Origin: Candidatus Helarchaeota ASGARD archaeon Hel_GB_B
GTDB taxonomy: Archaea; Asgardarchaeota; Lokiarchaeia; Helarchaeales; HEL-GB-B
Reading direction: 5' to 3'
DNA length: 32,000 bases
Assembly (NCBI GenBank): GCA_005191425.1
Contig: SUPR01000029.1
Coordinates: 1-32,000 of the forward strand
Below the pieces are notes generated by a model. That model did no database searches. It saw only the letters and a list, made by a program, of their open reading frames with translations, and was not told the DNA's origin. Positions 941-24,612 of this stretch are shown here, one piece after another. Within the stretch, counting starts at the first letter, position 1. Each line of letters opens with the position of its first letter. The position numbers and the translations under genes are program-made.

Positions 941-962
941 TTTTGCAATGAGTGAACAAAAT
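941..962 (+). promoter_or_regulatory. Putative transcription-factor site TTTTGCAATGAGTG-aaca-AAAT, copy 1
   Basis: The 14-mer at 941-954 is identical to the copies at 11150-11163 and 24599-24612 (both - strand). TTTATAAA follows at 1023-1030, 68 nt downstream, upstream of ORF 1154. Confidence 0.6.
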
Positions 963-1153
963 TTTGTTAAAAAAGTTTAATTTAAATGGCAAAATGATTG
1001 ATTTTTAGAAGGTTTTGATTCCTTTATAAAGTAGTCTTATCATTATACTAATTTTGAATATAAATAATTTCTTTATAGAAAATTTAATTTTTAAAGCGAT
1101 GAAACTATTTGATTCAAATTTATAAAAGAAAATAATTTATAGAATGATTTAAT

Positions 1154-2410
1154 ATGTGTTTGATAGAGAAAAGCAATAAAAAAGCAGGTAAAAAGAGTAA
1201 ATTTAATAAAAATATTATAAAAAAGTATTTATTGTTAATTATAATATTTTATATACTTAACGGGTATATTTACTTAATTAATAATGTGAATGCATTTGAT
1301 AAATTTAGCTATGAACTTGAAAATAATTATACGGAATTAGACAAACCTGATTTTGCTATAACAAATGATTACATAGTTGCTTTAAACAGTTATATTTATC
1401 AAAACTATTCCTTTTATGTTATTAACAAAATTACAAGGAAATTAGAGAGGGTTGACACTTTAGAAGTTTTTGGGGAGCAATTTCAACCTTTGTTAGTAGC
1501 AGGTAATAATGATTTAAATTATACACAAAATTTAGTTGTAATGGTAAATGAGTGGGGTGATTTACTATTAGTTGATTTGAATCTTAATAAGATAATTAAA
1601 TCAACAAATTCGATATATTCAAATATTGATTATGAAATTAAGGGTTTAAAATATTACAAGCAATATATCATTTTAATCGCAAAAATTCCGAGTTCTAGCA
1701 GTTATTTTCTTGCAATTCTTAATGATGATTTGAGTTTGATTTATAATTTCTATTTAGAGGATAGTAGTAAGTATTTATTACAAAATTTGAAAATTTGTGA
1801 AAATTTTTTATTGACGATTTTTACACCAAAAGGTAATGAAAATATAGAGGATGAATTGTTCATATATAATCTGACGCAATTAGATGTACCACCCACAAAA
1901 ATAGTATTGGGAATAAATATATATGATTCTGCCATTTCAAAATATTATAATTTAATTTATATTGGAACTAAGGGTTCAATTATTTTTTTAGATTTAAAGG
2001 CATATTCAGTGGTAGATAGTTATAACCTCTCAATTATTCAATCATTGACTAATATTGGAAATTTAAAAGTTTATAACAATCAAATTGTTCTTTCATTTGT
2101 ATTTGATTCAAAAATTTACTTTTTCAACATTATTAATAGGACGAGTATTAATTATAAAGGATATATTTCAGGCCTAGAATTAGCAAATCAATTAGAGTTC
2201 GAATTTTTAGAACAATTAAGCAATAAATCTACTAGAATGGTAATAAATACATATACAAGTCTTCTTATAATCAAATTTAACCAAGATATTATGGATCCAT
2301 CCGTCTATGAAAAATATGGTATTAATATTCAAGAGTCTATGCCTATTATTTTACTTATTTTAGGCATTTCAGTAGTAGTACTATTTGTTCAACATAAAAA
2401 ACAAAAGTGA
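1154..2410 (+). CDS. Surface/membrane-anchored protein, possibly a beta-propeller
   Basis: Basic N-terminus with a hydrophobic stretch (YLLLIIIFYILNGYIYLI), a beta-strand-rich repetitive body, and a C-terminal TM helix with basic tail (PIILLILGISVVVLFVQHKKQK). Confidence 0.75.
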   Translation: MCLIEKSNKKAGKKSKFNKNIIKKYLLLIIIFYILNGYIYLINNVNAFDKFSYELENNYTELDKPDFAITNDYIVALNSYIYQNYSFYVINKITRKLERVDTLEVFGEQFQPLLVAGNNDLNYTQNLVVMVNEWGDLLLVDLNLNKIIKSTNSIYSNIDYEIKGLKYYKQYIILIAKIPSSSSYFLAILNDDLSLIYNFYLEDSSKYLLQNLKICENFLLTIFTPKGNENIEDELFIYNLTQLDVPPTKIVLGINIYDSAISKYYNLIYIGTKGSIIFLDLKAYSVVDSYNLSIIQSLTNIGNLKVYNNQIVLSFVFDSKIYFFNIINRTSINYKGYISGLELANQLEFEFLEQLSNKSTRMVINTYTSLLIIKFNQDIMDPSVYEKYGINIQESMPIILLILGISVVVLFVQHKKQK

Positions 2411-2416
2411 ATTACC

Positions 2417-4894
2417 GTGAAATATAAATTAGATAAATATAATGATTATGAATACGAAAAAAGGATAGCAAACTTTCTATGGAAGAGTAGAGAAAATAAA
2501 ACACAATATTATAATTTAAAAGACATTATTATGACTATCTTACTAATAACTATTAGTATTTTTATAGCAGAAGCTATGACCTTATGGGTTAATATGTTTT
2601 GGACTTTAGCATTTTTAACAATAATGATGTTTTTCTCGGCATTTTTAATAAAATATTCTAGATTTTATAGATTACTACCGCTTCATTCTTCAATAATAGA
2701 AGAAATACAGCTACCAAATTCTATTAAATATTTCTTTTTGTTAGATAAAAATAATAGACCTAATTATGATGTTTTGTTTATTGATAATGGTGATAAAACA
2801 ACAGGATTAACATTATTTAAAATTAAAGCTCCCTCAAAGAAATTGTTTTATAGTTTTAATGAGTTTGTTAGAGGATTATATGAGAAAAAGGATGTCCCAC
2901 TTTTTTGGTATCAAGTCCAAGAACCTGTTGAATATAAAGATTTTATTGAACTAGATTGCATAACAGAAAAAGCAAAAAATAAACTTCTAATGTATCCAAG
3001 AGATTCTCGTGAATCATTACTTGTAGTTCCAGGTGGAATCTGGCGGACCACTATAATTTTTGGTACAAAAGGATTTACCGTACCAAATGCTCCATTGAAC
3101 GAATTAAAATTATTGTTAAAAAAGCTTGAAGTCTTGCGAATTAAGTTATTGACTAATTTTAAAGGGGTATCTTCTGGAATACCGATTAGTCCATTGACTA
3201 AAAAAGAATTATTTTCACTGGTCAATTCATTAATGATTAACCAAGATTGTGAGCAGTCAGTTTTTTACCAAACAGGTATTGAAAATGTGAATCATTTTCT
3301 AAATTTTCCAAAAATGGCAATTAAAAGTTTGAAATCAAAATATCCAGCGGAATTTACAGTACCTACCGATCTACCATATGATATTGGCCCACTTGGATAT
3401 TCTATAGAACCAGAATTTCAATCTACAGAACGGAGCATTGGATTATATTCTAAAGAATTAGGGCATGGATTATTAAGTGTAGGGGCTATCCAAGATGAAT
3501 TATTTAAAATTAATACCTTAGTTTTATACGAAGCTGTCATTCAGGAATATTCGTTTATAATTATTACCAGTAATAAAAAATATAGAAAAATGCTACAATA
3601 TATAGATAACCTGACTATTTTTCCATATAAAAAATATGGTATAGATATTTTTAATGATGAAGGATTTGAGCGTGAAAAATATATCTCAGAATTAGAGAAA
3701 ATCTTCAAAATATCATTATCATTAGACCAAGATGCTCCGCTTTATTCGATTTTAATTGAAATATATAATGAAGGAAATAGAAGTATCGATGGCTTAATTA
3801 GGCTTATTGAAGACAAAATAAAAAATGAAGGAACTGATATGAATTATAGAGATAGACAGGCCATTAATACTCTTAAAGAAACTCTCGAATTACTATTAAA
3901 AAGTGAAACTGCTAAATTTTTTGAGCTAAAGAATTTACCAATAGATAATAGATTACATAATTCAATTTTTGAAATAGATATTAGACAAAGAAAAGTAAAA
4001 AAGATTGTAATTTTTCTATTACTTTTAAAATTCGCTATAAAATCAATAGTTGATCAAAATTTCGGAAAAAATTTAATAATATTAATTGATGATGCAGATT
4101 TTATTTTTCATGACGAACGGCCCTACTCGCATGGAAATTTAACAGAACGGGAATTAACGACAATTGAATTCCTTAAATTCTTAAAGAGGTCTGGTGTTAT
4201 TCCATTTTTATCAATTTCAAATCCTAAAGATATAATCCCAGATATTATTAATGAATTAGGGAATGCTTTTGTTTCAAATATGAAAATTTTCGATAATATT
4301 ATGGCTATAAGGCAAGTATTAAATTTAAATTTAAACCGTGGCCAAAAAACAGAGGAACATAAACCTACTTTTTATTCAGAATTACGTAAATATGGATATC
4401 AATTTGAATATTTAAGTGATATGGCACCTAATGAATTCTTATTGAAAAGACCTGGTGTTAGGACATGTTTTCCGATATCTATTAGGCCATTAGAATTTAA
4501 TAACATAAATTATTCTGATGACCAAATTTTAAACCGAACTTATACTCAGATCCCTGAACTTAGAAAAACATTCTCAATTCCTGATTATGAAACAGTCCTT
4601 GAAAAAGACTTTAAGGGCGATCAAGATGATATCAATTCAGTTTTAGAAATTCTAGAAATTTTAATGGAATATCCAAGGATCTCTTTAAGCGCAATCATTT
4701 CTGCAACTTCATTAAATCAGAAAGAAGTTGATTATTTTATTAAATCACTTAAAAAATGCAAGTATATTAGGGCAGAGCAAGTGAGAAGTGGAGCATTTAA
4801 CAGATATGAAATCATAATAACAGATAAGGGTAGGTCTGTATATAGAGAATATATTCATTTAAAAAAAAGATTGACAGATGATGAAAATGAATAA
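2417..4894 (+). CDS. Membrane-anchored VirB4/HerA(DUF87)-like protein with degenerate Walker A and a C-terminal winged helix
   Basis: Two N-terminal TM helices. ELGHGLLSVGAIQDELF...FIIITSNKKYRKM aligns by eye with the family pattern H-x-l-I-x-G-x-TGSGKT...viiiDpxGEY but lacks GKT. Walker B-like IILIDDADF; LSDMAPNEFLL is typical of the family C-terminus. A MarR-like wHTH follows (ISLSAIISATSLNQKEVDYFIKSLKKCKYI...ITDKG). GTG start 6 nt after the previous stop. Confidence 0.7.
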   Translation: MKYKLDKYNDYEYEKRIANFLWKSRENKTQYYNLKDIIMTILLITISIFIAEAMTLWVNMFWTLAFLTIMMFFSAFLIKYSRFYRLLPLHSSIIEEIQLPNSIKYFFLLDKNNRPNYDVLFIDNGDKTTGLTLFKIKAPSKKLFYSFNEFVRGLYEKKDVPLFWYQVQEPVEYKDFIELDCITEKAKNKLLMYPRDSRESLLVVPGGIWRTTIIFGTKGFTVPNAPLNELKLLLKKLEVLRIKLLTNFKGVSSGIPISPLTKKELFSLVNSLMINQDCEQSVFYQTGIENVNHFLNFPKMAIKSLKSKYPAEFTVPTDLPYDIGPLGYSIEPEFQSTERSIGLYSKELGHGLLSVGAIQDELFKINTLVLYEAVIQEYSFIIITSNKKYRKMLQYIDNLTIFPYKKYGIDIFNDEGFEREKYISELEKIFKISLSLDQDAPLYSILIEIYNEGNRSIDGLIRLIEDKIKNEGTDMNYRDRQAINTLKETLELLLKSETAKFFELKNLPIDNRLHNSIFEIDIRQRKVKKIVIFLLLLKFAIKSIVDQNFGKNLIILIDDADFIFHDERPYSHGNLTERELTTIEFLKFLKRSGVIPFLSISNPKDIIPDIINELGNAFVSNMKIFDNIMAIRQVLNLNLNRGQKTEEHKPTFYSELRKYGYQFEYLSDMAPNEFLLKRPGVRTCFPISIRPLEFNNINYSDDQILNRTYTQIPELRKTFSIPDYETVLEKDFKGDQDDINSVLEILEILMEYPRISLSAIISATSLNQKEVDYFIKSLKKCKYIRAEQVRSGAFNRYEIIITDKGRSVYREYIHLKKRLTDDENE

Positions 4895-5795
4895 ACTAAA
4901 GTTCATTTCTAATTTCATTATTATATTTTTTATGATTAATTTTATAATAGTAGGTTTAATCCCAAATATTTTTGGTATTTCTAATGCTACTCAGACATCA
5001 AATAATTTATATTTTTTATCGGTCGGAGAAGCGTATTATGAGTCAAAATCTAATGAACTTATACCAAATGAAGGACCAGCAATTTGGCATATTAAAACAA
5101 ATTTTGATAATGAATGCATATATATCTTATTTGATATTATGGACACAACAAATCCTGATAACAAAAATTTAGATCATTTGACATTTTATATTGATTTCAG
5201 CAATAATAATTATTTATCTGATAAATCGTCTTTTGGATTCTATATACAACGCAATTTATTAATTAAATATTACAGATACAATACAAATCAAGGAAATTTC
5301 GTTGAGGTATGTCCTCCCGATGACGGATCTATGGGTACTATACATATTTTACCTTCCTGGAAAGTTTATTATGTTTTTAATTATTCTCAATTTGGATATC
5401 CGAAATATCCCGAAAATCAGACGATAAAATTAATGGCAATTTATACAGACCATATTATTGGGTCTATTATATTAGATTATAAATATCCCAGTCTATGTAA
5501 CAGCTTATTAAAGAGTTCTTGGGCTACAGGGTATTTTATTGAAGGGTATTCAAATAATGATGCTTTTGTTATTACAATTTGGATATTAATTTTTATTATA
5601 ATTGCTGGATTTGCACTTATTTCATATAAACAATATAAAAGTTCATCAGAATTTCAAAAATTCAATAATAATAGACCTAAAAACAAAACAAATAGTTTAT
5701 TGAATTTTTCTATTCCAAGATTAAATGAAGAAGATTCTGGTGATGATGATATAAATTATGAAATTGATTCATTTGAAGGTTATGAACCATGGTAA
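4878..5795 (+). CDS. Single-pass surface protein with a DOMON/CBM9-like domain and acidic cytoplasmic tail
   Basis: N-terminal signal/TM; WHIKTNFDNECIYILFDIMD...DHLTFYIDF resembles the DOMON/CBM9-like pattern; C-terminal TM (VITIWILIFIIIAGFALISY) then EEDSGDDDINYEIDSFEGYEPW. Overlaps the upstream gene by 17 nt. Confidence 0.65.
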   Translation: MMKMNKLKFISNFIIIFFMINFIIVGLIPNIFGISNATQTSNNLYFLSVGEAYYESKSNELIPNEGPAIWHIKTNFDNECIYILFDIMDTTNPDNKNLDHLTFYIDFSNNNYLSDKSSFGFYIQRNLLIKYYRYNTNQGNFVEVCPPDDGSMGTIHILPSWKVYYVFNYSQFGYPKYPENQTIKLMAIYTDHIIGSIILDYKYPSLCNSLLKSSWATGYFIEGYSNNDAFVITIWILIFIIIAGFALISYKQYKSSSEFQKFNNNRPKNKTNSLLNFSIPRLNEEDSGDDDINYEIDSFEGYEPW

Positions 5796-6018
5796 ATTCT
5801 GAAATATTATTTGAGAAATCTCTTGTGTTAAAATTTTTAGAAATTTTTAAAATGAAAAAAATCAAATTGCTAAAAAAATGGGTTGATTATACAGCCCGAA
5901 TCATCTTTACCTTAAAAAATAACTGTAAAATACATTTGATATTATCAAAACTTAAAAAGAATTACATGTTTTATCATATAAAAACTTATATTCCAAATAT
6001 TAAATCTATATTAAGGAT

Positions 6019-8496
6019 GTGTGCAAAATGAAAAAGAAGTCAACATTAATTATTGTTATTTTCATAATAACTGCACTGGTACTCATAATTAATTTAAAAT
6101 ATATGAACCAAAATAATATTTTGACTAAAAAAGACCTAAAAACTAATATACAACATTCTCAAGCCGAACCTTACTTCTATACTGTATATTCATCAAACTA
6201 TTATACAAGCTCAAATTACTCTATATTTGGCGGTCTTGCTGATTTAAAAACAGAAGTTCCAGGATTCATGAGTATTTCAAAATCATTTCATGGAATAGAG
6301 GGCTTAATATATATTGAATATGAATTTGATATGAGAAATATATATACAGATATAATGGACACTTTCATAATAGATTTACTTGCAAACGGAGGAATGAACT
6401 TAACTGGAACGACTAATCTAACCTTATACGTCTATAATTATACTACAGACAATTATATATCGATCTATAAAATAAATGGAGACACTGAAAATATTTTTAG
6501 AAAAAATGGATACATTGAAGTAGAACTTTCAAAAATATTTGGTATTAATAATATAAAATATAATTTAATCTCGCAATATAAAATGAAATTCAAAATTGTA
6601 TTACATAATAAATTGGTTAATACAATACCTCAAGATTTTGAGCAGAAATTATACATTTATTATATCCAATTATTAATTGGAAAAGATATTGAAATTAGAA
6701 ATTTAGAAGCTTCAAGGTTGGTCGACCTCACAAATGGATATTTTCATGTAATAGGAAATTTGACTAATATGTTTGAATTAGATAATAAAACAATTCAGTT
6801 TGGAATTTCTAATGTATTTCAATATCAAACGGTAATAGCGAATTTTTATATTGAATATGACCTTGGGTATTTCGTAAAAGAGGAAATCCTAGGCATTTTG
6901 TTCCATCATTTAGACTGGATATATAGTTCTGGCGCTAGCTTTTATTGCGAAGATCCGTATATTTCAATTTTTAATTTCAATACCAATTCTACTATATCCA
7001 TTCAGTCAATTAAAGAAGATCCACAAAGCTCACTAGAGAATGTTGATCCAATAAGGTGGGATAGTCGAATCAGTGTGAATAAAACCGGCGTTATTAATGG
7101 TTCGGTTATTAGGGTCTATTATCATGCAAAAATTACAAATTTAGATCCAGCGCCTGCTTATTTTAGTATTACTATAGACCTGGGTACAATACAATTTGTA
7201 AGATCGCTAAGTCCTTTTGTAGCTAATGTAAATGTAATTGACAATTATGAATATTGGGGAAATAATGCTTGGATAAATGGGACTGTCTACAAGGGAAAAT
7301 ATGATTTGGCTAACATTACTATTGAATCCTCAGGTGATGTTATTTCTACTGTTCCAGGTTATTTTGAATACCCAATAGTTATAAATTCTGAGGGACAATA
7401 TGAATTTTATGTAAAAGCAACAGACATATATGGCTATTCTAGTATTTCCGGCCCTTATTATATACAATTCAATAGCCACCCAGTCCAAATTAACTTATTA
7501 CTCGAAGAATTCCCATATCCAACCCCTCCAGATTTACCTAAAATAGATGTAAATATCTTAATTAAAGATGCTATTTTTAATATACCTTTGTCCAATACTT
7601 TTTTTGATCTATTTGTCGAACGAAATAATACCATAATAACAACTTATCGTAATTTATTAACAGGAGAAGATGGGACTTATCAACTTTATTACGATGTAGA
7701 ACGCGATAAATATCTTGATATAGAATATAAATTTACAGTTGAAGTCCATCAAATGATGAATTATCAATATGCTTCAGCATCATCATATATAATGCCTACA
7801 CTTGCACCTTGTTATATCACAATAATTAATTATACAATATCTAACAATGCTTTTGCAGGGGATCATTTTAGTTTACAAATTGAATATTATTCTCTTGCCA
7901 ATTTTACAAATGCTTGGTTATTATTAAATAATTCAATAATTAGTGATTTAAATCTCCATGAAGGAAATAATACAATAAATATTATTAATGATAGAGCTGG
8001 GTTATGCAATTATCAAATTCGAGTTATTAATGACCACGGCTATTCTAATATTTCAAAACCATTATACCTATATTTTAAACCCAATCCTATTATTTGTGAA
8101 GTTAAACATGTAATTAATTATTTAAATAAATACTTATTCATTAACATTTCAATTTTGGATAAAAGGACTAATCAGACACTACCTAATATCCCTATTGATA
8201 TCACTATTTATGATAATAATTTAATATTCTGGAAAACAACACTTCCTTCTACTTTACCATACACTCCAATATATATTCAATTCGATTTATCTTCTCATAA
8301 TTTCTCAATATTTGTAAATATCAATAATACTTCGTTATATAAGGGCCAAAGTATTAAAATTTTAAACATAGCCTTTAAATATAAACCATATCCATATTCT
8401 GAAACAATTCTTATGGTCGTATTATCTGGTGTGGGCATATCTGTCTTTTTTATTCAAAATAAGAAAAACAATATACACATAAAAAAGGAGGATTAA
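6019..8496 (+). CDS. Large cell-surface glycoprotein-like protein with Ig-like segments and a C-terminal anchor
   Basis: KKKSTLIIVIFIITALVLII signal/TM (the real start may be ATG 6028). Many N-x-S/T sequons, Ig-like stretches (DVNILIKDAIFNIPLSN...TGEDGTYQL), and a C-terminal TM with FIQNKK. Confidence 0.75.
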   Translation: MCKMKKKSTLIIVIFIITALVLIINLKYMNQNNILTKKDLKTNIQHSQAEPYFYTVYSSNYYTSSNYSIFGGLADLKTEVPGFMSISKSFHGIEGLIYIEYEFDMRNIYTDIMDTFIIDLLANGGMNLTGTTNLTLYVYNYTTDNYISIYKINGDTENIFRKNGYIEVELSKIFGINNIKYNLISQYKMKFKIVLHNKLVNTIPQDFEQKLYIYYIQLLIGKDIEIRNLEASRLVDLTNGYFHVIGNLTNMFELDNKTIQFGISNVFQYQTVIANFYIEYDLGYFVKEEILGILFHHLDWIYSSGASFYCEDPYISIFNFNTNSTISIQSIKEDPQSSLENVDPIRWDSRISVNKTGVINGSVIRVYYHAKITNLDPAPAYFSITIDLGTIQFVRSLSPFVANVNVIDNYEYWGNNAWINGTVYKGKYDLANITIESSGDVISTVPGYFEYPIVINSEGQYEFYVKATDIYGYSSISGPYYIQFNSHPVQINLLLEEFPYPTPPDLPKIDVNILIKDAIFNIPLSNTFFDLFVERNNTIITTYRNLLTGEDGTYQLYYDVERDKYLDIEYKFTVEVHQMMNYQYASASSYIMPTLAPCYITIINYTISNNAFAGDHFSLQIEYYSLANFTNAWLLLNNSIISDLNLHEGNNTINIINDRAGLCNYQIRVINDHGYSNISKPLYLYFKPNPIICEVKHVINYLNKYLFINISILDKRTNQTLPNIPIDITIYDNNLIFWKTTLPSTLPYTPIYIQFDLSSHNFSIFVNINNTSLYKGQSIKILNIAFKYKPYPYSETILMVVLSGVGISVFFIQNKKNNIHIKKED

Positions 8497-8500
8497 TATT

Positions 8501-8779
8501 TTGCACTATCTATTTAATTTTAATGATTTTGTAATTATTGTTAATGATCTTTTTGGCAATATTTTTCAATTTTTAATAATATGTGCTACATTATTATTAA
8601 TTGTAAACCTTCTTCTTTACTTTTTCACAAATCAGAAAGATTTAAAACCTATATTAACCTGCATAGCTACAGTAGGAATTTGTACTCTTCTAAATTATTT
8701 GATTTTTGGCCGATTCCCTTCCTTACCTCCATTTTTACAATTTATTGAGGTATGGATCAAACAACTATTGGGACTATAA
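8501..8779 (+). CDS. Small two-TM hairpin membrane protein (VirB2/CedA1 pilin-sized)
   Basis: TTG start 4 nt after the upstream stop, with GGAGG RBS at 8487-8491. Two hydrophobic helices separated by the charged loop TNQKDLKP. The pilin assignment is inference only. Confidence 0.6.
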   Translation: MHYLFNFNDFVIIVNDLFGNIFQFLIICATLLLIVNLLLYFFTNQKDLKPILTCIATVGICTLLNYLIFGRFPSLPPFLQFIEVWIKQLLGL

Positions 8780-9694: not shown

Positions 9695-11023
9695 CTAATA
9701 AGCTATTTTTATTGTATTAAAATTTTCATAACCAATCAATTTAGCATTAGATTTTAGTACAGAATTAATAAATTTAGTTAAAATCCGTAATTCTTGAGAT
9801 GGACGGGTCTCAGGGATTATTGTCATATTCATCAGGGTATTACATTCAGGACATTTGAAATCATCATTTTCAAAATATAATAAATAATTGAATGTTTTTA
9901 GGCAATTTGGACATTCCAAAATAATTGAATCGCCATTATTTTTTAGTTTATTATATTTGGATTCGAGCGATTTTTTAGTTAAATTAATAACTCGCATTGA
10001 ATTACTTATGAATTCTTTTCTCCCTCTTGCAAAATATTCGAGTATCCCCAATTCACTTAATTTGTATAGTGTGCGCCGAATTTCATTACTACCTACTTTA
10101 AATACTTGTTCTAATAAGGTATATGGAATTTTATCGTTATTATTATGATAAATACAATGCAATGAATACCCCCAAATTGTCAAATCAAATTCTTCAAGAG
10201 GATATAGGTTAATAATAGTCGTATAATATTTTTCTATCGAGCGTAATTCAAGTATTGTAGCCATGGCTAATGACTTGACTTTATCTGGCTTAAAATGCTT
10301 AAATAATAGCGTCAAATTACTTTTACCGCAGATTAAAAGTCCTTCATGATGGTCTGAGGATTTTATTCCAAGTTGAAATAAAATATCCTTGATTTGGTTT
10401 AGAAATGATTTTAAAAATTTTTTTTTGATATTAGAATGGATTTTTGAATTTAATAATCTTAAAATTAGAAATTCTCGAATTCCCCCCTGTCTGTTATTAA
10501 AAACATAATGAGCTTTTTTCGAACTAAAAAGTCCAGAAAGTATTCCCATTTTCACTTCATTAGAGAGTCCTTGAAGGATTTGTGGGCTCTGGATATTAAG
10601 TCCGATACATTTTAAATATTTTTTAAAAGAATTTGGAAACTTAACAATGAATTTTTGATAATATTTGTAAAATTTTTTTCTGTAGGTCTTACGTTTCTTT
10701 TCTTGCTTTTTGAGTTCTATTTTTACTCCAATTTTTTCACTAAATTTTTTAATAAAAGGAATTTGAGTGGGTTCTATGACCAAAATAAATTGTTTATTAG
10801 AAGAATAACTTGAACCAACGGCAATACCATAGAAATATCCATAATCATAATCTGGATTTTGTAATTTAAATTTTTGATTATTTATTAAAATATCGCAATT
10901 ATCAGTTAAATTCTTTAAAAATGGTGTTATTCGTACCCATTTATCATTATTAATATCATAATATTTAGCTTTTTCTTTACTTAGTCTATTAATTAGTAGT
11001 CTGTTGTTCAATATTCTAACCAC
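9695..11023 (-). CDS. Fusion of an inactive two-motif LAGLIDADG domain with a TFE-alpha/TFIIE-alpha-like wHTH and Zn ribbon
   Basis: LAGLIDADG-like helices GYFYGIAVGSS (aa 62-72) and GILSGLFSSKK (aa 160-170), both lacking the acidic catalytic residue; FLNQIKDILFQLGIKS is typical of intein-type LAGLIDADG domains. Then EIRRTLYKLSELGILEY (TFE-like wHTH), CPNC-x16-FKCPEC (TFE-like Zn ribbon) and a terminal helix ELRILTKFINSV. Confidence 0.75.
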   Translation of the reverse strand: MVRILNNRLLINRLSKEKAKYYDINNDKWVRITPFLKNLTDNCDILINNQKFKLQNPDYDYGYFYGIAVGSSYSSNKQFILVIEPTQIPFIKKFSEKIGVKIELKKQEKKRKTYRKKFYKYYQKFIVKFPNSFKKYLKCIGLNIQSPQILQGLSNEVKMGILSGLFSSKKAHYVFNNRQGGIREFLILRLLNSKIHSNIKKKFLKSFLNQIKDILFQLGIKSSDHHEGLLICGKSNLTLLFKHFKPDKVKSLAMATILELRSIEKYYTTIINLYPLEEFDLTIWGYSLHCIYHNNNDKIPYTLLEQVFKVGSNEIRRTLYKLSELGILEYFARGRKEFISNSMRVINLTKKSLESKYNKLKNNGDSIILECPNCLKTFNYLLYFENDDFKCPECNTLMNMTIIPETRPSQELRILTKFINSVLKSNAKLIGYENFNTIKIAY

Positions 11024-11141
11024 CGAATTTTTATCAAATTATAAATCTTTGTCTTATAGTTACTGACAAAAACTATATATTAGTAAAAAAAATGGGGTTT
11101 TGAAGATAGTTTTGCCGTTTTTTTTGAGTTATAATTTGTTC

Positions 11142-11163
11142 ATTTTATGCACTCATTGCAAAA
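11142..11163 (-). promoter_or_regulatory. Putative transcription-factor site TTTTGCAATGAGTG-cata-AAAT, copy 2
   Basis: Upstream of the LAGLIDADG-TFE gene; shares 16 identical bp with copy 1 (939-954 vs 11150-11165). TAATATATA at 11082-11074 lies 67 nt downstream on the - strand and is a weaker TATA match. Confidence 0.55.
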
Positions 11164-11263: not shown

Positions 11264-12244
11264 TTATGAATTAAAAATGTAATGATCAATCCGCTTTTGC
11301 TTTATTTTTAAATCTTTGAATCCTTTATTTAACCTGGCTAAACCTCTTCGCACTCTATTTATAGAAAAATTCTTCTCTAATAAATATTCCTTAATAGCCA
11401 AAATATTTGGATATTGAAAATAAACATCAAATTTTGAGGTTATTGGTTTCAAGAATAGGTTTCTAATTTTATTAGCATCAAATTCGTTAAATTCGTAGTC
11501 CTTTCTCATGGTCTCAATATTACCATATTTCTTTATCATTTTTAATGATGTTTTAGGGCCAAATCCTTCGAATCCTGGATGATAATCATTTCCCATTAAG
11601 ATAATGATATCAATCAATTGGTTAAAAGAAATATCTAATTTTGTAAGTACTTTATTCAAAGAGATTTGCTGTAAAGTATTAGTCTTAAAGTTCAATTTTC
11701 TATAAATCTTTGGACATCCAAATATTAAGCAATCATAATCTTCAGAAATAACTCCATATGCCTGTTGCTCTTTAACAAGGCGCACCGCTTGAGCTTCTCC
11801 CTCACTTGGTGCTCTAAATACCGGAACTCCGAACATTCGTATAAATTTAATTAAATCTTCAATTATATATTTATATAGGAAGAATGAATCTTTAAAAACC
11901 TTTAACTTACTTCCATTTCCACCTAAACTATTATATTTTTTCCATGCATTTGACAACCTCTTAATTTTATAGTAATTATATGGTCTTTTTTCTCTTGGTG
12001 GAATTCCATCAAAGATAAAAATTGGTTTAATTTTTCGTTCGATTAAATTTATAATAAAATAAAAGAAACCATAGATATGAGAGACTGGATTTCCATGATA
12101 ATCATAAAAAATATCTTGAGAATTTTTTATTTTTGTTATATATTTAAATAATAAGTTAGTTGCGTCAATAACAATCGTCTTATGTGAAATATCACTAAAA
12201 TTTATTGTTTCTGAAATTACAAGTTCTTTTAATTTAAGACCCAA
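11264..12244 (-). CDS. fen: Flap endonuclease 1 (XPG/FEN1 family)
   Basis: MGLKLKEL start (TTG, AAGGTGG RBS); IDAT, FDGIPP, APSEGEAQA, SEDYDCLIFG, GNDY and GFGPKTSLKMIKKYG motifs; C-terminal PIP-like QKRIDHYIF. Confidence 0.93.
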   Translation of the reverse strand: MGLKLKELVISETINFSDISHKTIVIDATNLLFKYITKIKNSQDIFYDYHGNPVSHIYGFFYFIINLIERKIKPIFIFDGIPPREKRPYNYYKIKRLSNAWKKYNSLGGNGSKLKVFKDSFFLYKYIIEDLIKFIRMFGVPVFRAPSEGEAQAVRLVKEQQAYGVISEDYDCLIFGCPKIYRKLNFKTNTLQQISLNKVLTKLDISFNQLIDIIILMGNDYHPGFEGFGPKTSLKMIKKYGNIETMRKDYEFNEFDANKIRNLFLKPITSKFDVYFQYPNILAIKEYLLEKNFSINRVRRGLARLNKGFKDLKIKQKRIDHYIFNS

Positions 12245-14134: not shown

Positions 14135-14233
14135 AATTGACTACCAACAAATTTATAAATGAAATTTTTGACCTTTGCATTTTTGGTTTAAAATCTCCAG
14201 GTAAATTGAACTATTTAAAAATCTTTTGAATGA

Positions 14234-16897
14234 GTGAATAAATTGATCAAGTACGATAAGATCATTAAAGATATGTTAGAAAAAGTTGGTATCGAAAATT
14301 TACGGCCAATTCAGAAGCAGTCGGTGCCATTTATATTTGGGAAAAAGCCAAGAAACTTATTAATAGTGGCACCCAGTGCCAGTGGAAAAACTTTAATTGG
14401 GGAGCTTGCGTTAATGAATGCTGCATTAAACGGAATGAAAGGTTTTTATTTAGTCCCATTAAAATCTATAGCAAATGAAAAATTTATAGATTTCTTCAAA
14501 AAATATAGTGCTAATATTTCGATTGCAATCACTACGGGGGATTTTGATATCTCTATGGAAGAATTGGAAAAAAAACAAATAATAATAACAACATATGAGC
14601 GATTTGATTCAATTATTAGAAAAAAACCTTCTTGGTTTAAAAGGATTTTTGTAGTAGTTATTGATGAAATCCATAATATTGGCGATAGAACTCGTGGTAT
14701 AAAACTTGAGAGCCTTTTAACCCGACTTATGACTTATAATCAAATTCAAATTATTGGACTATCGGCTACAATTAAAAATCCAGAGGACTTAGCAAGCTGG
14801 TTAAATGCGGAATTAATAATAAACAAAGAAAGACCCGCAGAATTGCGATATAAAATTCTTATCTCAGAAAATAAATATGAAACCTTAAAAAATTTAATAC
14901 CAAAATTGGTCGAAAAAAAAGCACAAATACTAATTTTTACTAGAACTCGAAAAGAGTCAGAAAAATTAGCAAAAAATCTATCAAAAGTTGTCAAAAAATA
15001 CCTCACTTTTGATGAATTTCAGGAATTGGATTCATTTTCTAAAAATATTATGGAGTCATCACTTGATTTTCAGACAATTACTGGCGGTGTTGGCTATCAC
15101 CATGCCGGCTTAGATCATAATTCAAGAATTTTAGTTGAAAAATTGTTTAATAATTCATTAATTAAAGTCATTTGTTGTACTACTACATTGTCTTCCGGGA
15201 TAAATACGCCTGCAAATATTGTAATAATAAAGGATTTTAAAATGTACAATAATATTTCAAACAGACCAGAACTTTTGGATAAAAATAAATTCCATCAAAT
15301 TTCTGGAAGAGCTGGAAGATTTGAAAAAAATATTGGTTTTGCAATTATTATGGTATCAAATGAAGAGGAAGCAAATAAAGTAAAGGAATATTATTTTAAA
15401 GAAATTAATTTAAATAATGATAAATATCATAAAAAAAGCGTTTTAAAAGCTAAATATGAAAATATTTTTAGTTCATTACCTGAAAATAGATATGCTTTAA
15501 TCGATCAAACATTGGTTTTTATTCATCACCATGCTGAAGGAATAACTAGAAATGATTTAATTAGATTTTTTAAAAAGACATTCTTTTATTTTCAATTAAA
15601 AAGCCATGGAAATGAAGATTATTTAATAGAACGACTTGCGTTTGATAAAAAGAATATAGAAGCTGTCTTAAGAGCTCATTTAGTTAACCCCAATAACATT
15701 ATACCTGCGGAAGTAAAGGCTATACATATATTAGAAGATAGATTTGAAGGTATTGTTATTACTAATCATGAAAAAATTGATAGAATTTGTAGTTTTTCTA
15801 ATAATTCCCGATACTGCACTTGCTCCACTTTTAAAAATACAGGTTTTTGTATTCATTTATATCATTTAGCTATTGCAGCATTGAAAAAATATCGGATTTC
15901 ATCGGAAGATATCATTTTAAGTTCATTTAATGAAAATTTTATTTTAGATTATCTTCTTAATAACAATCTAATTTATATCGAAAATGAGCGGTTTAAGTGT
16001 ACAGAATATGGAAATTTAATTGTGAATCTATTTATAGACTCGCGTATGTTTCTATTTATTAGAAATAGATTGAAATTTACTACTTGTACTTATGATTTTT
16101 TAGATTTGATTAAAAAATTAACGGAATTAAAGTTTGAAAAATCTCTGAGTTATCATTATCTTTCAGTATTAAATGAAATAATAAATACTGACGAAAATAT
16201 CGATATTAATAAATTTTTAAAAAAGATGAGTACATCTGAAATTGGAATTGGTGACCTTGAGAGTTTTATAGAGGCATGTAGATGGGTAACTAATGTGATA
16301 ATAAAAGTTGCAGAAAATACAATTGAAGGAAACGAAAAAATCATTAATATTGGAAAAATGGTCTTGGATAAAATAAATAGACCATTACCAGATGAAGAAA
16401 TGATGTATAAAATAGTCCAAAGCTCAATGGGTTCGAATATTGGCATTATAAAAAGTAACGATGAAGATATGAAACGAATATTCTGTAAAAAAGTCAAATA
16501 TTTTTTAGTATTACATAAAATAAGCGGAGTCCCAATTTATTCATATAATTTCTCTCTTAATGACCTTGACTCGTCATTAATATCTGGTTATTTGACAGCA
16601 ATTAGTAGTTTCGGGCTAGAAATATCTGGAGGAATTCAAACAAACGTGAAAAAAATGGAATATGATAAAATGAAAATTTTGATACAAGAAGGAGAAAACA
16701 TTCGAGCTACTATTATCTTGGAAGAAGGATATGATGAATGGGTTTTAGAGCGACTTAAAATTTTTATTGAAAATGTTGAGAATAAATTTACAAATTTACA
16801 GAACTGGAATGGAGATTTAAACATGTTTCGGAATATCGGAAAAATGTTTAATGAAGTATTTGGTTATAATCTAATTGAAGACCCGCCAAATATTTAA
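14234..16897 (+). CDS. Ski2/Hel308-like SF2 (DEAD/DEAH-box) helicase with a SWIM Zn finger and a C-terminal longin-like domain
   Basis: Helicase motifs APSASGKT, DEIH, LSAT, TTTLSSGINTPA and QISGRAGR; CTC-x8-CIH (SWIM-like, about 15812-15860); C-terminal YFLVLHKISGVPIY...DSSLISGYLTAISSF longin-like domain (about 16493-16897). Confidence 0.88.
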   Translation: MNKLIKYDKIIKDMLEKVGIENLRPIQKQSVPFIFGKKPRNLLIVAPSASGKTLIGELALMNAALNGMKGFYLVPLKSIANEKFIDFFKKYSANISIAITTGDFDISMEELEKKQIIITTYERFDSIIRKKPSWFKRIFVVVIDEIHNIGDRTRGIKLESLLTRLMTYNQIQIIGLSATIKNPEDLASWLNAELIINKERPAELRYKILISENKYETLKNLIPKLVEKKAQILIFTRTRKESEKLAKNLSKVVKKYLTFDEFQELDSFSKNIMESSLDFQTITGGVGYHHAGLDHNSRILVEKLFNNSLIKVICCTTTLSSGINTPANIVIIKDFKMYNNISNRPELLDKNKFHQISGRAGRFEKNIGFAIIMVSNEEEANKVKEYYFKEINLNNDKYHKKSVLKAKYENIFSSLPENRYALIDQTLVFIHHHAEGITRNDLIRFFKKTFFYFQLKSHGNEDYLIERLAFDKKNIEAVLRAHLVNPNNIIPAEVKAIHILEDRFEGIVITNHEKIDRICSFSNNSRYCTCSTFKNTGFCIHLYHLAIAALKKYRISSEDIILSSFNENFILDYLLNNNLIYIENERFKCTEYGNLIVNLFIDSRMFLFIRNRLKFTTCTYDFLDLIKKLTELKFEKSLSYHYLSVLNEIINTDENIDINKFLKKMSTSEIGIGDLESFIEACRWVTNVIIKVAENTIEGNEKIINIGKMVLDKINRPLPDEEMMYKIVQSSMGSNIGIIKSNDEDMKRIFCKKVKYFLVLHKISGVPIYSYNFSLNDLDSSLISGYLTAISSFGLEISGGIQTNVKKMEYDKMKILIQEGENIRATIILEEGYDEWVLERLKIFIENVENKFTNLQNWNGDLNMFRNIGKMFNEVFGYNLIEDPPNI

Positions 16898-16900
16898 TAT

Positions 16901-18859
16901 TTACAAATTAATTTTGTTATAAAACATTTTTACAATTCTTCCAACAAGTCCCTCATATTTTTCGATTTTTATAATCCTGTCTTGTATCCAATTACTTAAT
17001 AATTTAAAATATTTTTTATAAAAAAATCTTTCATCTAAAAATATTATTATTCCTTTATCATCAAGTTTTCTGATAGGTCTTCCTGCTGATTGATTTGCTT
17101 TTCTTAAAGCAGGGATATAATACGCATATTCCAGTCCTCGTTCTTCACCAAATAAGTTTTGATAATATTTAATCAATTTTTTTATTGAATACGAAATTTT
17201 TGCAAAAGGTATGCCAACTATGACTACAGTACTCATTTCCTTACCTGGAAAATCTACACCCTCAGAGTTTCTACCACCAGATGCACCAATTAAAAACCCT
17301 CTCATACCCTTGTAAGGTAATTTCTTATATTCAGTGATCATAGCTTCGTTCTCTTTACTATTCATACTTTTAGATTCCATGAAAAATTTGATCCCCAATT
17401 CCTCTATTTTTTCTTTTAGCCCTTGTTCTAAAAGTCCATTAATTACTGAATAAGATGCACAGAAAACCCCTGTATTATATTTTGTGTTTTTAGCTGCTTC
17501 AACACAACAATTCATGATAAACCTATAATTCTCTTCAGTTCGGTCTTCAAATTTTAGAGTGATATCTTGTACTCCTATTATTGAAACATTTTCAAATGGG
17601 AATGGCGATGGTAGTATTCGTTCTTTAGTATTATCAAGGGTCATCCCGCAAATTTCTCGGAATGCTCGTATCGGCGCTAAAGTACCAGAAATTATCACCA
17701 AATTTCTTGCATTAAATAAATCATTTAAAATGGGTCTAACATCAAGTGTTTTAATCACAAACTCAACATTTATTTTATTTTTAACTTTAGATACTCTTAA
17801 AATATGAATATAGTCTGGTCTTAAATAATTTTGATAGATAAATTGTAAAAAATGTGCTGTTTTATATAGGCTAGACCTAGGAAGTTTATTATTTTTAAGC
17901 ATTAATTCTCGAACTTGTACCCCTTTTTCTATTAAATTATTGAAAAAATTCTCAATATTGTCTGTTTTTATTTGAGAGAAAATATTTTTTAATGTACTTT
18001 TTCTAACAGCTATTTCGATAGTTTCACCCTCTTTTGGGTCGTATGCCATCCCAGTAGTTTCAATAAATGATTTAATGTCCTTAAGAAATTGTATTGATGG
18101 GACATCATCGTCTAATAGTAATCCAATTAATTCATCTAAAGCTCTTTTAACTGATCTGGGTGTGATTTGTTGAGTCCCTGCTTCTAATGCCACATCAATT
18201 ATATTATGCCCTTCATCAAATACAATTATGCAATCAGAAATTAATTTATCGATATCTTTGAAAAAAATTTGCCTGATAAATGGGTGAATTAGATAATTGA
18301 ATGTCGTAATAATTACATCAGTCTCTTTCAATAGTCTTTTTGCCAGATAATAAGGACATATATTATATCTTACGCCAATAGCAATTAATTCTTCACTTTT
18401 ACCTGTTTTTAAATTATATTCAAAATTTTGTAAATTGGTGAAATATTTACAACTTCCATTTTTTCGCAATTGGCTACAAAGATCTGTAATCTCCATTATT
18501 GTCCCTCTCCTGACTTCTTCATTAAGACACATCTCGGTTTTCCCTTTTAATGTTAAACCTCTAACCACATAACCTTGATCACTACCTTTTTTGTTTATTT
18601 CCTCTAATTCAGCAATAACCCTATCCATTTGGGTATGCGTCCGAGTAGCATATATCATAGTTAAATTGTTTTGCTTGATAATTGGTATAATAGCAGATAA
18701 AGTTGTTATTGTTTTACCAGAACCATTTGCAGCTTCTATGAGAATGAATTTATGTGGTAATTTTAAATGGTCATATATTTCATTCATTAATAGACCTTGT
18801 CCAGGCCTAAGTGAATTATAGGGAAAAAACTTTCTAATTGAAGAAGGAATTGATATCAT
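16901..18859 (-). CDS. xpd: XPD/Rad3/DinG-family Fe-S DNA helicase
   Basis: AANGSGKT; four Fe-S cysteines (KTEMCLN, DLCSQ, GSCKYF, ICPYY); DEGHN, SGTLAP, SEGVDF and NQSAGRPIR motifs. Confidence 0.92.
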   Translation of the reverse strand: MISIPSSIRKFFPYNSLRPGQGLLMNEIYDHLKLPHKFILIEAANGSGKTITTLSAIIPIIKQNNLTMIYATRTHTQMDRVIAELEEINKKGSDQGYVVRGLTLKGKTEMCLNEEVRRGTIMEITDLCSQLRKNGSCKYFTNLQNFEYNLKTGKSEELIAIGVRYNICPYYLAKRLLKETDVIITTFNYLIHPFIRQIFFKDIDKLISDCIIVFDEGHNIIDVALEAGTQQITPRSVKRALDELIGLLLDDDVPSIQFLKDIKSFIETTGMAYDPKEGETIEIAVRKSTLKNIFSQIKTDNIENFFNNLIEKGVQVRELMLKNNKLPRSSLYKTAHFLQFIYQNYLRPDYIHILRVSKVKNKINVEFVIKTLDVRPILNDLFNARNLVIISGTLAPIRAFREICGMTLDNTKERILPSPFPFENVSIIGVQDITLKFEDRTEENYRFIMNCCVEAAKNTKYNTGVFCASYSVINGLLEQGLKEKIEELGIKFFMESKSMNSKENEAMITEYKKLPYKGMRGFLIGASGGRNSEGVDFPGKEMSTVVIVGIPFAKISYSIKKLIKYYQNLFGEERGLEYAYYIPALRKANQSAGRPIRKLDDKGIIIFLDERFFYKKYFKLLSNWIQDRIIKIEKYEGLVGRIVKMFYNKINL

Positions 18860-19629: not shown

Positions 19630-19653
19630 CTGCTCTCACAATAATGAAATTTT

Positions 19654-20751
19654 TTACGAGCGTTTTCTTCGTACTATCTTTTTAGTTTGTGGGACTTCTT
19701 TTTCAACTGTATTAATTTGCCTTTCTGTTGATGGATTTTTATTCATTTTGGTATCGGATTGTTTTATTGTATTTATTTTAACAGGTTTTACACCTAAATC
19801 ATAATATCCAGTATCTCGTAATACAAGTACAACTTCACTTTTTGGTAAATCTACGGCTTTTTCAACTTTAAATTTACGTTCTCCTTTTGCTGAACTTTTG
19901 ATTGTAACTTGGATTCTGATTTCCGATTCATGTCCAATTACATTTCCCATTGAATGTTTAATTCCAGCGCCATAGCCCGAAGGGTCGCCTGTTGCTTGAT
20001 TTGTAATTACAGCAACAATGTTATATAATTTAGCAAATTTTTTAATTTCATGAAGTATTTGATTGGCTTTTTGTTGTCGCTCGGGTATTAATTGCCTTTG
20101 TGCACCATATTCTGACCTAAAATGCGTAGCAATTGAGTCAAGTACTACTAATTTAGCACCCGTTAATTCTATTTGCGTTCCTAATTGTTGAGAACACATA
20201 TATCGTAATGCATCAGAATTAGCTGGAACTGCCCGAGAAATTCCTTTAATAACTGCATTACCATCTAGACCAAACCTGGGCGCTATCTCTCTAATTCTTT
20301 TTAATGATAAAGAATTTTCTGCATCAATAAATACAGTACCCCCACCAAGTCCTCCTTTTGATTTTGGCAAAGCAGCAGTACATATCAATTGATGTAGCAT
20401 ATTTGATTTTCCGGTACCCTCAGGACCCCAAAATTCATACAATCTTTGAGTAGACAAACCCCCACCTAATATTTCATCAAAAGTTTTACAGCCGGTCGTT
20501 AATATTTCTCTTTTATTATATTCTTCTAATAATTCGTCTCCTGTCTTAAATTTAAGACCAAGTACCCCATCTGACTGTTCAGCCGCAGATCTAATAATTT
20601 TTTTTGCAACAGCTTCTGTAATTCCATCAATTGCAGCTAATTCACTAGGCCTCGCAGTTGCTATTGATTCTATAGTTCTAAAACCATTATCAATTAGTTT
20701 CTGGGCAGTAGTAGCTCCAATTCCATCCAATCTTTCTAAATCTGAACTCAA
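19654..20751 (-). CDS. radA: RadA/Rad51-family recombinase (divergent, with C-terminal extension)
   Basis: N-terminal HhH domain (LERLDGIGATTAQKL, GFRTIESIATA), TGCKTFDEILGGG, Walker A GPEGTGKS, LP-x-x-x-GGL, IDAE, LDS, FRSEY, ERQQK and TNQ motifs. TTG start with AGGTGA RBS. Confidence 0.9.
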   Translation of the reverse strand: MSSDLERLDGIGATTAQKLIDNGFRTIESIATARPSELAAIDGITEAVAKKIIRSAAEQSDGVLGLKFKTGDELLEEYNKREILTTGCKTFDEILGGGLSTQRLYEFWGPEGTGKSNMLHQLICTAALPKSKGGLGGGTVFIDAENSLSLKRIREIAPRFGLDGNAVIKGISRAVPANSDALRYMCSQQLGTQIELTGAKLVVLDSIATHFRSEYGAQRQLIPERQQKANQILHEIKKFAKLYNIVAVITNQATGDPSGYGAGIKHSMGNVIGHESEIRIQVTIKSSAKGERKFKVEKAVDLPKSEVVLVLRDTGYYDLGVKPVKINTIKQSDTKMNKNPSTERQINTVEKEVPQTKKIVRRKRS

Positions 20752-20803: not shown

Positions 20804-20818
20804 TTTTTAAATGTTTCG
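20804..20818 (-). promoter_or_regulatory. BRE-TATA promoter of radA
   Basis: The - strand reads CGAAACA-TTTAAAAA about 55-65 nt upstream of the TTG, a canonical archaeal BRE+TATA arrangement. Confidence 0.55.
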
Positions 20819-22704: not shown

Positions 22705-22948
22705 AATTTTATTGTTGTCGAGATTATTTTCTTTTTTCTAAATTATTTTTATGAGCGTATCCGCATAGTAATTAATAAAATTTCTTCTAAATCTTACTAA
22801 TTATTCCATTTTAATTATAATTAAAATTTCTGATCTTCTACTCATGATTTTTTTACATTCCATTATATTTTTAAATGGAATTTTTCACCTTTTAAAATTA
22901 TTATTTAATCATAAATGAAAATATTATCCAAGAAGGACTTGTAAAAAT

Positions 22949-23659: not shown

Positions 23660-24000
23660 TTTTAGAAAAATAACTATAAAAAACTATAGAATTCTTATTC
23701 TTATTATTAATTTTACATCACTTATTAAGTCAAAAAAGGAAAGTGATTTTTCAATTTTAGATATACAATTAACCATCAAAAAACGAAAATTTTTATTTAG
23801 AAAAATTGAAGCATTATTCCATTATTTAATAGGCTTATTACAATATATGCATTTAAAAGCAATATCATATTCTAATAAAAAGTTCTTTATAACTTAGTTC
23901 CAAATGATTTTATATAAAATTCCTTAATTTCAATCCCCTATCTTAAAAATTAAATAATATTTTTATGATAAAATAGAAAATTCAAATTTTATTATCAATT

Positions 24001-24480
24001 TTAGTAAATATATGGACCTAGATTTACAAAAAGCATTAATCCGGTGTTAATATACAGCCAAAATACAATAACAATAATACCAATCAGATTACTAACTACA
24101 AATATTAGGCGCGGTTTTATATTTTTTCTATTAATATTAAATGCGTATAATGTTATAATTAAAATTAAATAAACGAAAAGCAAAACCGTAATAAAAGAAA
24201 TCAGTACTTGGAGTGTTTGTATTATTATATTATTATATATCGCAATATTTACTATTAAATAAATTCCAAAAGTAGTTTTAATAAAATATACTCCTAATAA
24301 ACTGAGAACTATAAAAACTATAGTAATTAAAAGCCCTTTTTTATTCGAATTTATTTTCGTAGTATACAAGGACAGTTGAATTATCAGTAAAACAATTAAT
24401 CCTACAAAAAAATATGTCGTAAATATATAAATCCACTGAAAAATAATTTCACTAAACCACAATCTATTCACTTTTTTCAA
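24001..24480 (-). CDS. Four-TM integral membrane protein
   Basis: Four long hydrophobic segments with short basic loops; TTG start. Confidence 0.65.
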   Translation of the reverse strand: MKKVNRLWFSEIIFQWIYIFTTYFFVGLIVLLIIQLSLYTTKINSNKKGLLITIVFIVLSLLGVYFIKTTFGIYLIVNIAIYNNIIIQTLQVLISFITVLLFVYLILIITLYAFNINRKNIKPRLIFVVSNLIGIIVIVFWLYINTGLMLFVNLGPYIY

Positions 24481-24590
24481 ATTTTATTATTTATTATCAA
24501 ATTCATTATTCAGTAAGAATTTCTTTATAAATGTTAAAAAACCCATATTTAAGGTCAAAACTTTCAATTAAATGGACTTTTATATCACCC

Positions 24591-24612
24591 ATTTGAATCA
24601 CTCATTGCAAAA
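24591..24612 (-). promoter_or_regulatory. Putative transcription-factor site TTTTGCAATGAGTG-attc-AAAT, copy 3
   Basis: Exact 14-mer at 24599-24612; TTTATAAA at 24531-24524 lies 67 nt downstream on the - strand, upstream of the four-TM gene. Confidence 0.6.

Follow-up and report, generated by a model that had tools for sequence, protein, structure and literature searches.

A 22-bp asymmetric upstream element at near-fixed distance from TATA boxes marks a putative small regulon in Helarchaeota that includes a LAGLIDADG-TFE gene

Gene-specific control of transcription is almost unexplored in Asgard archaea, for which genetic handling is not yet available. A stretch of 32,000 nucleotides from Candidatus Helarchaeota archaeon Hel_GB_B (contig SUPR01000029.1, or C106; hereafter the window) raises the question of why one 14-mer, TTTTGCAATGAGTG, should stand in the same orientation and at nearly the same distance from a TATA box in front of three separate genes or gene clusters. 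The genome under study (G000) is a metagenome-assembled genome of 3.54 Mb in 182 contigs, with 28% GC and 94%-complete. In the model put forward here, the 14-mer belongs, as its conserved core, to a cis-regulatory element of 22 bp that is asymmetric and bipartite and is composed of box 1 (TTGCA), a 6-nt spacer and box 2 (G-N3/4-AAAT), the element defines a small regulon, and its reader is a 442-amino-acid (aa) protein joining a LAGLIDADG scaffold to a module that resembles the basal transcription factor TFE. Taken in all its parts at once, this model has in our judgement slightly better than an even chance of being right. What is new is the combination of a regulon that appears to be conserved while its cis-sequence turned over and a candidate factor of undescribed architecture.

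The three copies of the element in the window are placed as follows.

941..962, plus strand: site 1 of the 22-bp element (TTTTGCAATGAGTG-AACA-AAAT), 5′ of a six-gene surface/VirB4-like cluster
11142..11163, minus strand: site 2 of the 22-bp element (TTTTGCAATGAGTG-CATA-AAAT), 5′ of the LAGLIDADG-TFE operon
24591..24612, minus strand: site 3 of the 22-bp element (TTTTGCAATGAGTG-ATTC-AAAT), 5′ of a gene for a protein with four transmembrane (TM) helices

Scanning of the window confirmed what the initial annotation had reported, namely exact copies of the 14-mer at 941-954 (+), 11150-11163 (-) and 24599-24612 (-), each followed by an N4-AAAT tail and each lying in intergenic DNA on the coding strand of the next open reading frame (ORF). 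No further match to TTTTGCAATGAGTG was found in the window, even with two mismatches allowed. The gaps of 68, 67 and 67 nt between the 14-mer and a TATA-like box were recovered as well, with TTTATAAA at 1023, TAATATATA at 11082 and TTTATAAA at 24531.

1023..1030, plus strand: TATA-like box TTTATAAA, 68 nt past the 14-mer, with GGTTTTGATTCC just before it
11074..11082, minus strand: TATA-like box TAATATATA, 5′ of the LAGLIDADG-TFE operon
24524..24531, minus strand: TATA-like box TTTATAAA, with GGGTTTTTTAACA just before it

As had also been claimed, a T-rich stretch without a B recognition element (BRE) precedes these three boxes, as compared to the CGAAA-TATA arrangement at radA. A run of 4-8 T is present about 5-12 nt before TATA in every promoter. 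Genome-wide, the position of TATA relative to the ATG gave a broad profile, with no sharp peak.

Could the recurrence of the 14-mer be due to chance, or to a decayed mobile repeat (a miniature inverted-repeat transposable element (MITE) or a duplicated promoter) with no present function? The AT-richness of the genome speaks for such an explanation, as do two promoters of the more distant genome G004 that are alignable over about 135 nt and could reflect a promoter duplication. However, none of 100 dinucleotide shuffles of the window reached three matches to TTTTGCAATGAGTG when two mismatches were allowed. In the whole 3.54 Mb genome, the exact sequence occurs three times, each time in the window, as compared to 0.04-0.07 copies expected under Markov models of orders 0-3. 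In a look-elsewhere control, TTTTGCAATGAGTG was the sole dispersed 14-mer of the window having at least four G/C and at least three copies, and none of 100 simulated windows contained any such 14-mer. The initial estimate that recurrence by chance is unlikely is thus borne out by the shuffles, by the genome-wide expectation and by the look-elsewhere control.

A fourth copy carrying one mismatch, TTTTGCAACGAGTG, was found on another contig (G000:C14:807), 5′ of the gene for a 381-aa GNAT acetyltransferase. Its N4-AAA tail, its T-run stretch beside TATA (GGGGTTTTTAAC) and its spacing to TATA are all as in the window copies. Over the 22 bp, the four G000 copies are 82-91% identical, whereas their flanks and spacers show 28-55% identity, for 34% expected. 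Because the flanks are unrelated, the copies are not pieces of a longer repeat, and a MITE or dispersed-repeat remnant, which had been named beforehand as an outcome that would overturn the annotation, was rejected on these figures (0.28-0.55 vs 0.34). Elsewhere in G000, look-alikes with one mismatch or one indel fall within coding DNA and are without the N4-AAAT tail. A genome-wide motif scan, also set beforehand as a check, gave matches that are non-random, with the four G000 copies all intergenic. When the pattern was relaxed (box 1 - N6 - G-N3/4-AAAW, together with a T-run and a TATA at +76 to +90), 10 matches were obtained in G000; four were the known sites, the other six were located in ORFs or had no downstream gene, and no further regulon member was found in this genome.

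To follow the element across species, four other Helarchaeota were used (G001, L049, L050 and L057; orthologues 30-58% identical). G001 belongs to the same genus as G000 and has a 4 Mb genome (orthologues 31-54% identical), L049 is a 336-kb JGI contig of a third species, L050 represents a fourth species and L057 (GCA_014729825.1) a fifth. The exact 14-mer is species-specific. Among 40 relatives, it gave eight matches outside G000, mostly in coding DNA and without the layout described above. In G001, the promoter of the 442-aa orthologue and that of the orthologue of a 418-aa protein of the six-gene cluster (cluster 1) lack the 14-mer; both carry at the equivalent place a 16-mer, AAAAATCGCGAAAAAT, of which exactly these two copies exist in the G001 genome. 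The G001 promoters of the four-TM and GNAT orthologues carry TTTTCGCGAAAAAT and TTTTTGCGAAAAAAT, respectively. In L049, which is fully syntenic with G000 from RadA to the VirB4-like cluster, and in L050, GYGCA-N6-GCGAAAAAT is found before the same genes and at the same place, and this is overall the form of the element in the relatives. In L057, cluster 1 is split by a rearrangement and all three resulting promoters, including that of a newly separated 815-aa gene, carry AAAAT-S-GCGCAAAA. A fragment of a TnpB/Cas12f-like gene (PF07282) lies directly 5′ of the rearranged cluster (L057 1-126) and may be connected with this rearrangement.

An ungapped alignment of the G000 and G001 promoters of the 442-aa gene, made from the TATA side, maps TTGCA-ATGAGT-GnnnnAAAT onto GCGCA-AAAATC-GCGAAAAAT. 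This alignment of orthologous promoters shows that the 22-bp extent initially given to the motif is right and that the element is bipartite. The term pseudo-palindromic is not borne out: the element is asymmetric, and TTGCAA alone is palindromic. The same alignment rules out that the GCAA of G000 corresponds to the relatives' second box displaced by a 10-bp insertion, as GCAA falls on box 1 with no insertion. In G000, conservation has shifted from box 2 to the spacer. Closer to the gene, the proximal promoter of the 442-aa gene (ACGGCAAA ... T-run ... TATA ... TTTTGT.A.GTAACTATAA) aligns with that of its G001 orthologue over the proximal 45 nt. A second small box, (A)CGGCAAA, located 36 nt before TATA, is kept in the 442-aa gene promoters of G000 (11099-11106 (-)), G001 and G004. 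The promoter of the G000 cluster encoding the 418-aa protein has TGGCAAAA as second small box at 992-999 (+), with an identical offset of +47 relative to the beginning of the motif.

From the first base of box 1 to TATA, a distance of 79-80 nt was measured in 9 of 9 promoters from four species, across intervening DNA that is unalignable. The values in L057 are 71, 72 and 81 nt and differ by one helical turn. The orientation of the element is the same in 15 of the 15 promoters examined. Such a spacing, held to 1 nt across this divergence in AT-rich intergenic DNA, implies a stereospecific constraint. Chance recurrence and a decayed mobile repeat are contradicted by these comparative data, since in five species the element stands before the same genes, its spacing being kept within 1 nt, and we consider both extremely improbable.

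Overall, the element is non-random and restricted to these promoters, and its orientation and spacing are kept across species while its sequence diverges. Over-representation, intergenic location, fixed position and orientation and presence at orthologous promoters are among the features by which a cis-regulatory site is recognised, and the element is very probably a genuine cis-regulatory protein-binding site. The initial annotation had proposed an upstream activating site at weak promoters. A functional upstream site at fixed spacing to TATA is supported by the orthologous promoters of the four other species and by the constancy of the 79-80 nt; an activating role and the weakness of these promoters are suppositions.

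In more distant families of the order (G004, G005 and G006, of which G004 and G006 belong to family f2), a box of the GTGTT-N6-GCAATTTTTT type, at about -80/-70, is common to the promoters of the 442-aa and GNAT orthologues. In G004 (L016, L042) and G006 (L018), the same two promoters have in common a module of about 135 nt, within which a perfect palindrome, TTCTTTATAAAGAA, is located about 95 nt 5′ of TATA. A block after TATA, AAGTAGTACTTGTGGATTCAAGT, is in addition common to the two promoters of G004. This f2 promoter module may be a second regulatory layer or the product of a recent promoter duplication. In G005 (C11:589957-594280; L043, L015), the GNAT and LAGLIDADG-TFE orthologues are divergent neighbours about 2.2 kb apart, which supports a functional link between two genes that are on different contigs in G000.

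The conserved layout could also be explained at the RNA level. A short transcript would then run from the distal box to the T-run, or an upstream promoter would interfere with the proximal one, the 14-mer being a conserved RNA 5′ end. Consistent with this idea, the T-run found before TATA in every promoter resembles an archaeal oligo-T terminator, and the f2 palindrome is TATA-like and lies about 25 nt before the distal box in G004 and G006. However, the box-to-TATA segments of nine promoters gave no stable fold on either strand (z from -1.2 to +1.6), and no Rfam match was obtained at gathering thresholds. The interior of about 55 nt is unconserved even between copies of one genome, and the TATA-like sequences 5′ of the motif in G000 stand at variable distances (9-21 nt). 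An RNA module is therefore improbable in our view, and the protein-binding site is the reading retained below.

Judged from gene content and orthology, the genes downstream of the element would form a small conserved regulon within a genus-level group of Helarchaeota, made of the surface/VirB4-CedB-like cluster, the LAGLIDADG-TFE operon, the four-TM gene and the GNAT gene. Its members in the window are listed here.

1154..8779, plus strand: target cluster 1, six genes, with synteny in L049 and L057
8903..11023, minus strand: target operon 2, the 442-aa gene (9695-11023) followed by genes for 130-aa and 126-aa proteins of unknown function
24001..24480, minus strand: target gene 3, encoding a 159-aa protein with four predicted TM helices

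The 418-aa product of cluster 1 has a signal peptide and a C-terminal TM helix. Four other products of this cluster are a membrane protein of 305 aa, a protein of 80 aa, a secreted and TM-anchored protein of 825 aa and a DUF4149 protein of 92 aa. The remaining product (2417-4894 (+)) is a different protein, likewise of 825 aa, and is the one called the 825-aa protein below. It has two TM helices at the N-terminus, a HerA/VirB4/CedB-like (DUF87) domain as its core and a winged helix at the C-terminus; the Walker A motif is degenerate (GAIQDELFK) and the Walker B motif intact (DDAD). The nearest Atlas clusters, from language-model features and structure, are all DUF87/HerA/VirB4 and include one named DNA import protein CedB. 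As for target gene 3, the G001 orthologue is 46% identical and carries the G001 form of the element. No defence-system match was returned by PADLOC for any protein of the regulon.

The 442-aa protein was the main candidate for reading the element. It has no Pfam match, and its family is tiny, with 23 representatives among 1.8 billion. A search for related loci with the family alignment returned a single locus on genome contigs, G001-like, and none in metagenome contigs. The AlphaFold2 model is confident, with a predicted local distance difference test (pLDDT) of 84.4 and a predicted template-modelling score (pTM) of 0.78. Structural alignment matches residues 55-270 to I-Tsp061I (Z 16.1, root-mean-square deviation 3.4, 175 residues), PI-PfuI (Z 16.0), I-DmoI (Z 14.6) and WhiA (Z 14.4; 3hyi, 8dy7). 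Both LAGLIDADG motifs are without an acidic residue in 19 of 19 aligned members, with GLxxGS and GYLNSxK as consensus; the motifs of the 442-aa protein itself read G-I-A-V-G-S-S and G-L-F-S-S-K-K.

The C-terminal part of the model matches human TFIIE-alpha (5gpy_A, Foldseek E 1.2e-4, probability 1.0) and yeast Tfa1 in pre-initiation complexes. An extended winged helix is followed by a Zn ribbon, as in TFE and TFIIE-alpha, and four cysteines (C371, C374, C391 and C394) are invariant in the family alignment. At the sequence level, the matches to TFIIE/TFE chains are weak; against the TFE model TIGR00373, scores of 16.8-19.5 bits were obtained (E 0.0036), far below the cut-off of 149.5. Much higher scores were given by the same model to two other loci, one on C112 (132.8 bits) and one on C137 (90.8 bits), both under that cut-off as well. 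From these scores, we take the C112 and C137 matches to be the canonical TFE genes and the fusion to be an extra paralogue. With structure matches to both halves of the model, the label LAGLIDADG-TFE given initially to this gene is correct. As modelled, the protein would consist of a nuclease-dead, single-chain LAGLIDADG scaffold, a four-helix linker and a TFE-like module. No description of a LAGLIDADG-TFE fusion or of the element was found in the literature searched, an absence that is no proof of novelty.

A homing endonuclease was considered in view of the fold and rejected. I-DmoI, I-Tsp061I and PI-PfuI have the same fold (Z 14.6-16.1) and asymmetric targets of about 20-22 bp, which equal the element in length and asymmetry. 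However, the 442-aa family lacks the catalytic Asp/Glu, its gene lies outside any intron, intein or mobile cassette, and the sites are in promoters rather than in an intron-less allele. The gene is instead free-standing, flanked in conserved synteny by FEN1 and the VirB4-like cluster, and its linkage to this cluster persists despite rearrangement. In each of the five species, the promoter of this gene contains the element.

The sites recognised by monomeric LAGLIDADG proteins are asymmetric and long (about 20-22 bp), and TFE binds the clamp and stalk of RNA polymerase and stabilises the open complex. We propose that the 442-aa protein is the binding factor of the element and is autoregulated, an assignment whose chances we place somewhat short of even. 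The LAGLIDADG half would dock on the 22-bp site, leaving the tethered TFE-like half to contact either RNA polymerase or the TBP/TFB complex at a core promoter that lacks a BRE. A spacing fixed at about 80 bp, the T-tract beside TATA and the bending induced by TBP would supply the geometry. The factor would thereby control its own gene, by activation, which is a guess, or by repression; given binding, activation seems marginally the likelier outcome. In the widest form of the proposal, a domesticated homing-endonuclease scaffold would serve as the sequence-reading head of a promoter-specific TFE paralogue, switching on its own operon and a VirB4/CedB-like DNA-transfer/surface apparatus in a recombination-gene island. 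This last picture is tentative, and we see it as possible rather than probable.

Several observations weigh against the 442-aa protein as reader. About 100 bp separate the site from the expected start downstream, which puts it far from the usual place of TFE on RNA polymerase, so that the model needs DNA bending or wrapping. In the relatives, the element has the look of a direct repeat, with two GCG-A-run units at a distance of 11 bp (GCGCAAAAAT/CGCGAAAAAT), an appearance that fits poorly with the pseudo-two-fold symmetry of the LAGLIDADG scaffold. WhiA reads DNA mainly by its helix-turn-helix (HTH) domain and not by its LAGLIDADG domain, which may not bind DNA at all (PMC3384342). The assignment of TATA is ambiguous for the four-TM and GNAT promoters of G001. 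Substitutions specific to G000 are mildly enriched in the LAGLIDADG part of the protein (25/227 vs 8/143), and the co-variation is unconvincing. Finally, the winged helix at the C-terminal end of the 825-aa pseudo-ATPase is a second DNA-binding candidate within the regulon.

With this winged helix or an unlinked regulator as reader, the site and the regulon would still be real and LAGLIDADG-TFE would be a mere target. Residues 742-814 of the 825-aa protein form a winged HTH (HTH_34/Sso10a-like), the 11-bp period of the direct repeats would suit tandem winged-helix binding, and the doubt about DNA binding by the LAGLIDADG domain of WhiA counts on the same side. Conversely, the matches to the winged HTH are under the Pfam and NCBIfam cut-offs (19 bits vs 27; 20 vs 60) and the 825-aa protein has two N-terminal TM helices. 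A long asymmetric site of 22 bp with few genomic copies is, as is well established, the typical target of a single-chain LAGLIDADG protein, and the constant presence of the element at the LAGLIDADG-TFE gene, in all the species compared, also argues against this protein being a bystander. We consider another reader unlikely, if far from negligible, and keep the 442-aa protein as the candidate factor in what follows.

WhiA is a protein of Gram-positive bacteria in which a sigma-region-4-like HTH reads a short GACAC motif. Both WhiA (DUF199) and the 442-aa protein associate a nuclease-dead single-chain LAGLIDADG domain with a C-terminal domain of the initiation-machinery type, with the Z of 14.4 extending over about 170-180 residues. 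WhiA, a dead LAGLIDADG protein that acts as a transcription factor and controls its own gene (PMC3384342), provides a precedent for what is proposed here for the 442-aa protein, and the structure of WhiA has been obtained in an RNA polymerase open complex (8dy7). The 442-aa protein differs in being archaeal, in having a TFE/TFIIE-alpha-like winged helix and Zn ribbon, and in having a putative site of 22 bp located about 80 bp upstream of TATA; there is no sequence homology between the two proteins beyond the fold (9-10% identity). Membership in WhiA/DUF199 was accordingly rejected: the scaffold matches, but the C-terminal domain is TFE-like and the host is an Asgard archaeon, which makes the protein an analogue and not a member.

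Archaeal upstream activating sites, such as those of the Lrp-family protein Ptr2 in Methanocaldococcus, stand upstream of BRE/TATA in a fixed register and could recruit the basal machinery to a weak core promoter. The 22-bp element is likewise sequence-specific, upstream and in fixed register. In contrast, the Ptr2/Lrp sites are palindromic, are read by Lrp dimers or octamers and are nearer to TATA, whereas the element is asymmetric and about 80 bp upstream, with a candidate factor that is unrelated.

If the pairing of site and factor is true, it would represent a second, independent domestication of a LAGLIDADG protein into a transcription factor, after bacterial WhiA. It would also be the first case of a LAGLIDADG-based transcription factor in archaea, and the first of a gene-specific TFE, in the prokaryotes most closely related to eukaryotes, and the DNA specificity of the factor would have drifted between species while the regulon stayed. 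The locus offers a concrete pair, made of a 22-bp site, of which natural variants exist in other species, and a candidate factor of 442 aa, both halves of which have well-studied relatives. Even if the assignment of the factor fails, the element is a clean case of a conserved regulon with turnover of its cis-sequence.

The surroundings of the regulon in the window are rich in recombination and repair genes.

11264-12244: FEN1 gene
14234-16897: Hel308-type helicase gene
16901-18859: XPD gene
19654-20751: RadA gene

The regulon links the CedB/VirB4-like membrane machine to this cluster of divergent RadA, XPD, Hel308 and FEN1 genes, which hints at a DNA-exchange or repair programme. In Sulfolobales that have suffered DNA damage, TFB3, a paralogue of a basal factor, switches on the Ced DNA importer (CedB) and the Ups pili (PMC6101594, PMC6101591). 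In the window, it is a paralogue of TFE that is linked to a CedB/VirB4-like cluster beside the RadA, XPD, Hel308 and FEN1 genes, and, if the pairing is true, the basal factor TFE would have turned promoter-specific much like TFB3. The differences are that TFE takes the place of TFB, that a LAGLIDADG module is added, that the phylum is another one and that the CedB-like Walker A motif is degenerate. The parallel would be an analogy of logic and not a homology.

A possible degenerate fifth copy of the element, TTTTGAATGAGTGAATAAAT, is located at 14224..14243 (+), with a TATA box (TATTTAAAAA, 14213) on one side and the probable start of the Hel308-like gene on the other. One base (C) is deleted and the N4-AAAT tail is kept. 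The leader of the orthologous Hel308-like gene in L049 is similar (TTTTTGATTTAGTGAAG), though the regulon motif of L049 differs. Genome-wide, about six one-edit look-alikes are expected and six were seen. This copy could be a fifth, operator-like site or a coincidence.

A radical-SAM gene and a KaiC/RadB-like gene are also present in the window. Towards its end, a 1666-aa ORF at 26849-31849 (+) is without a Pfam match at E <= 0.01. At its beginning, positions 1-240 are occupied by tandem repeats whose periods are 21 and 33 nt (the unit is AAATCTTTTGTCCACTTGTTC, with a longer variant), within open frames that run off the contig piece.

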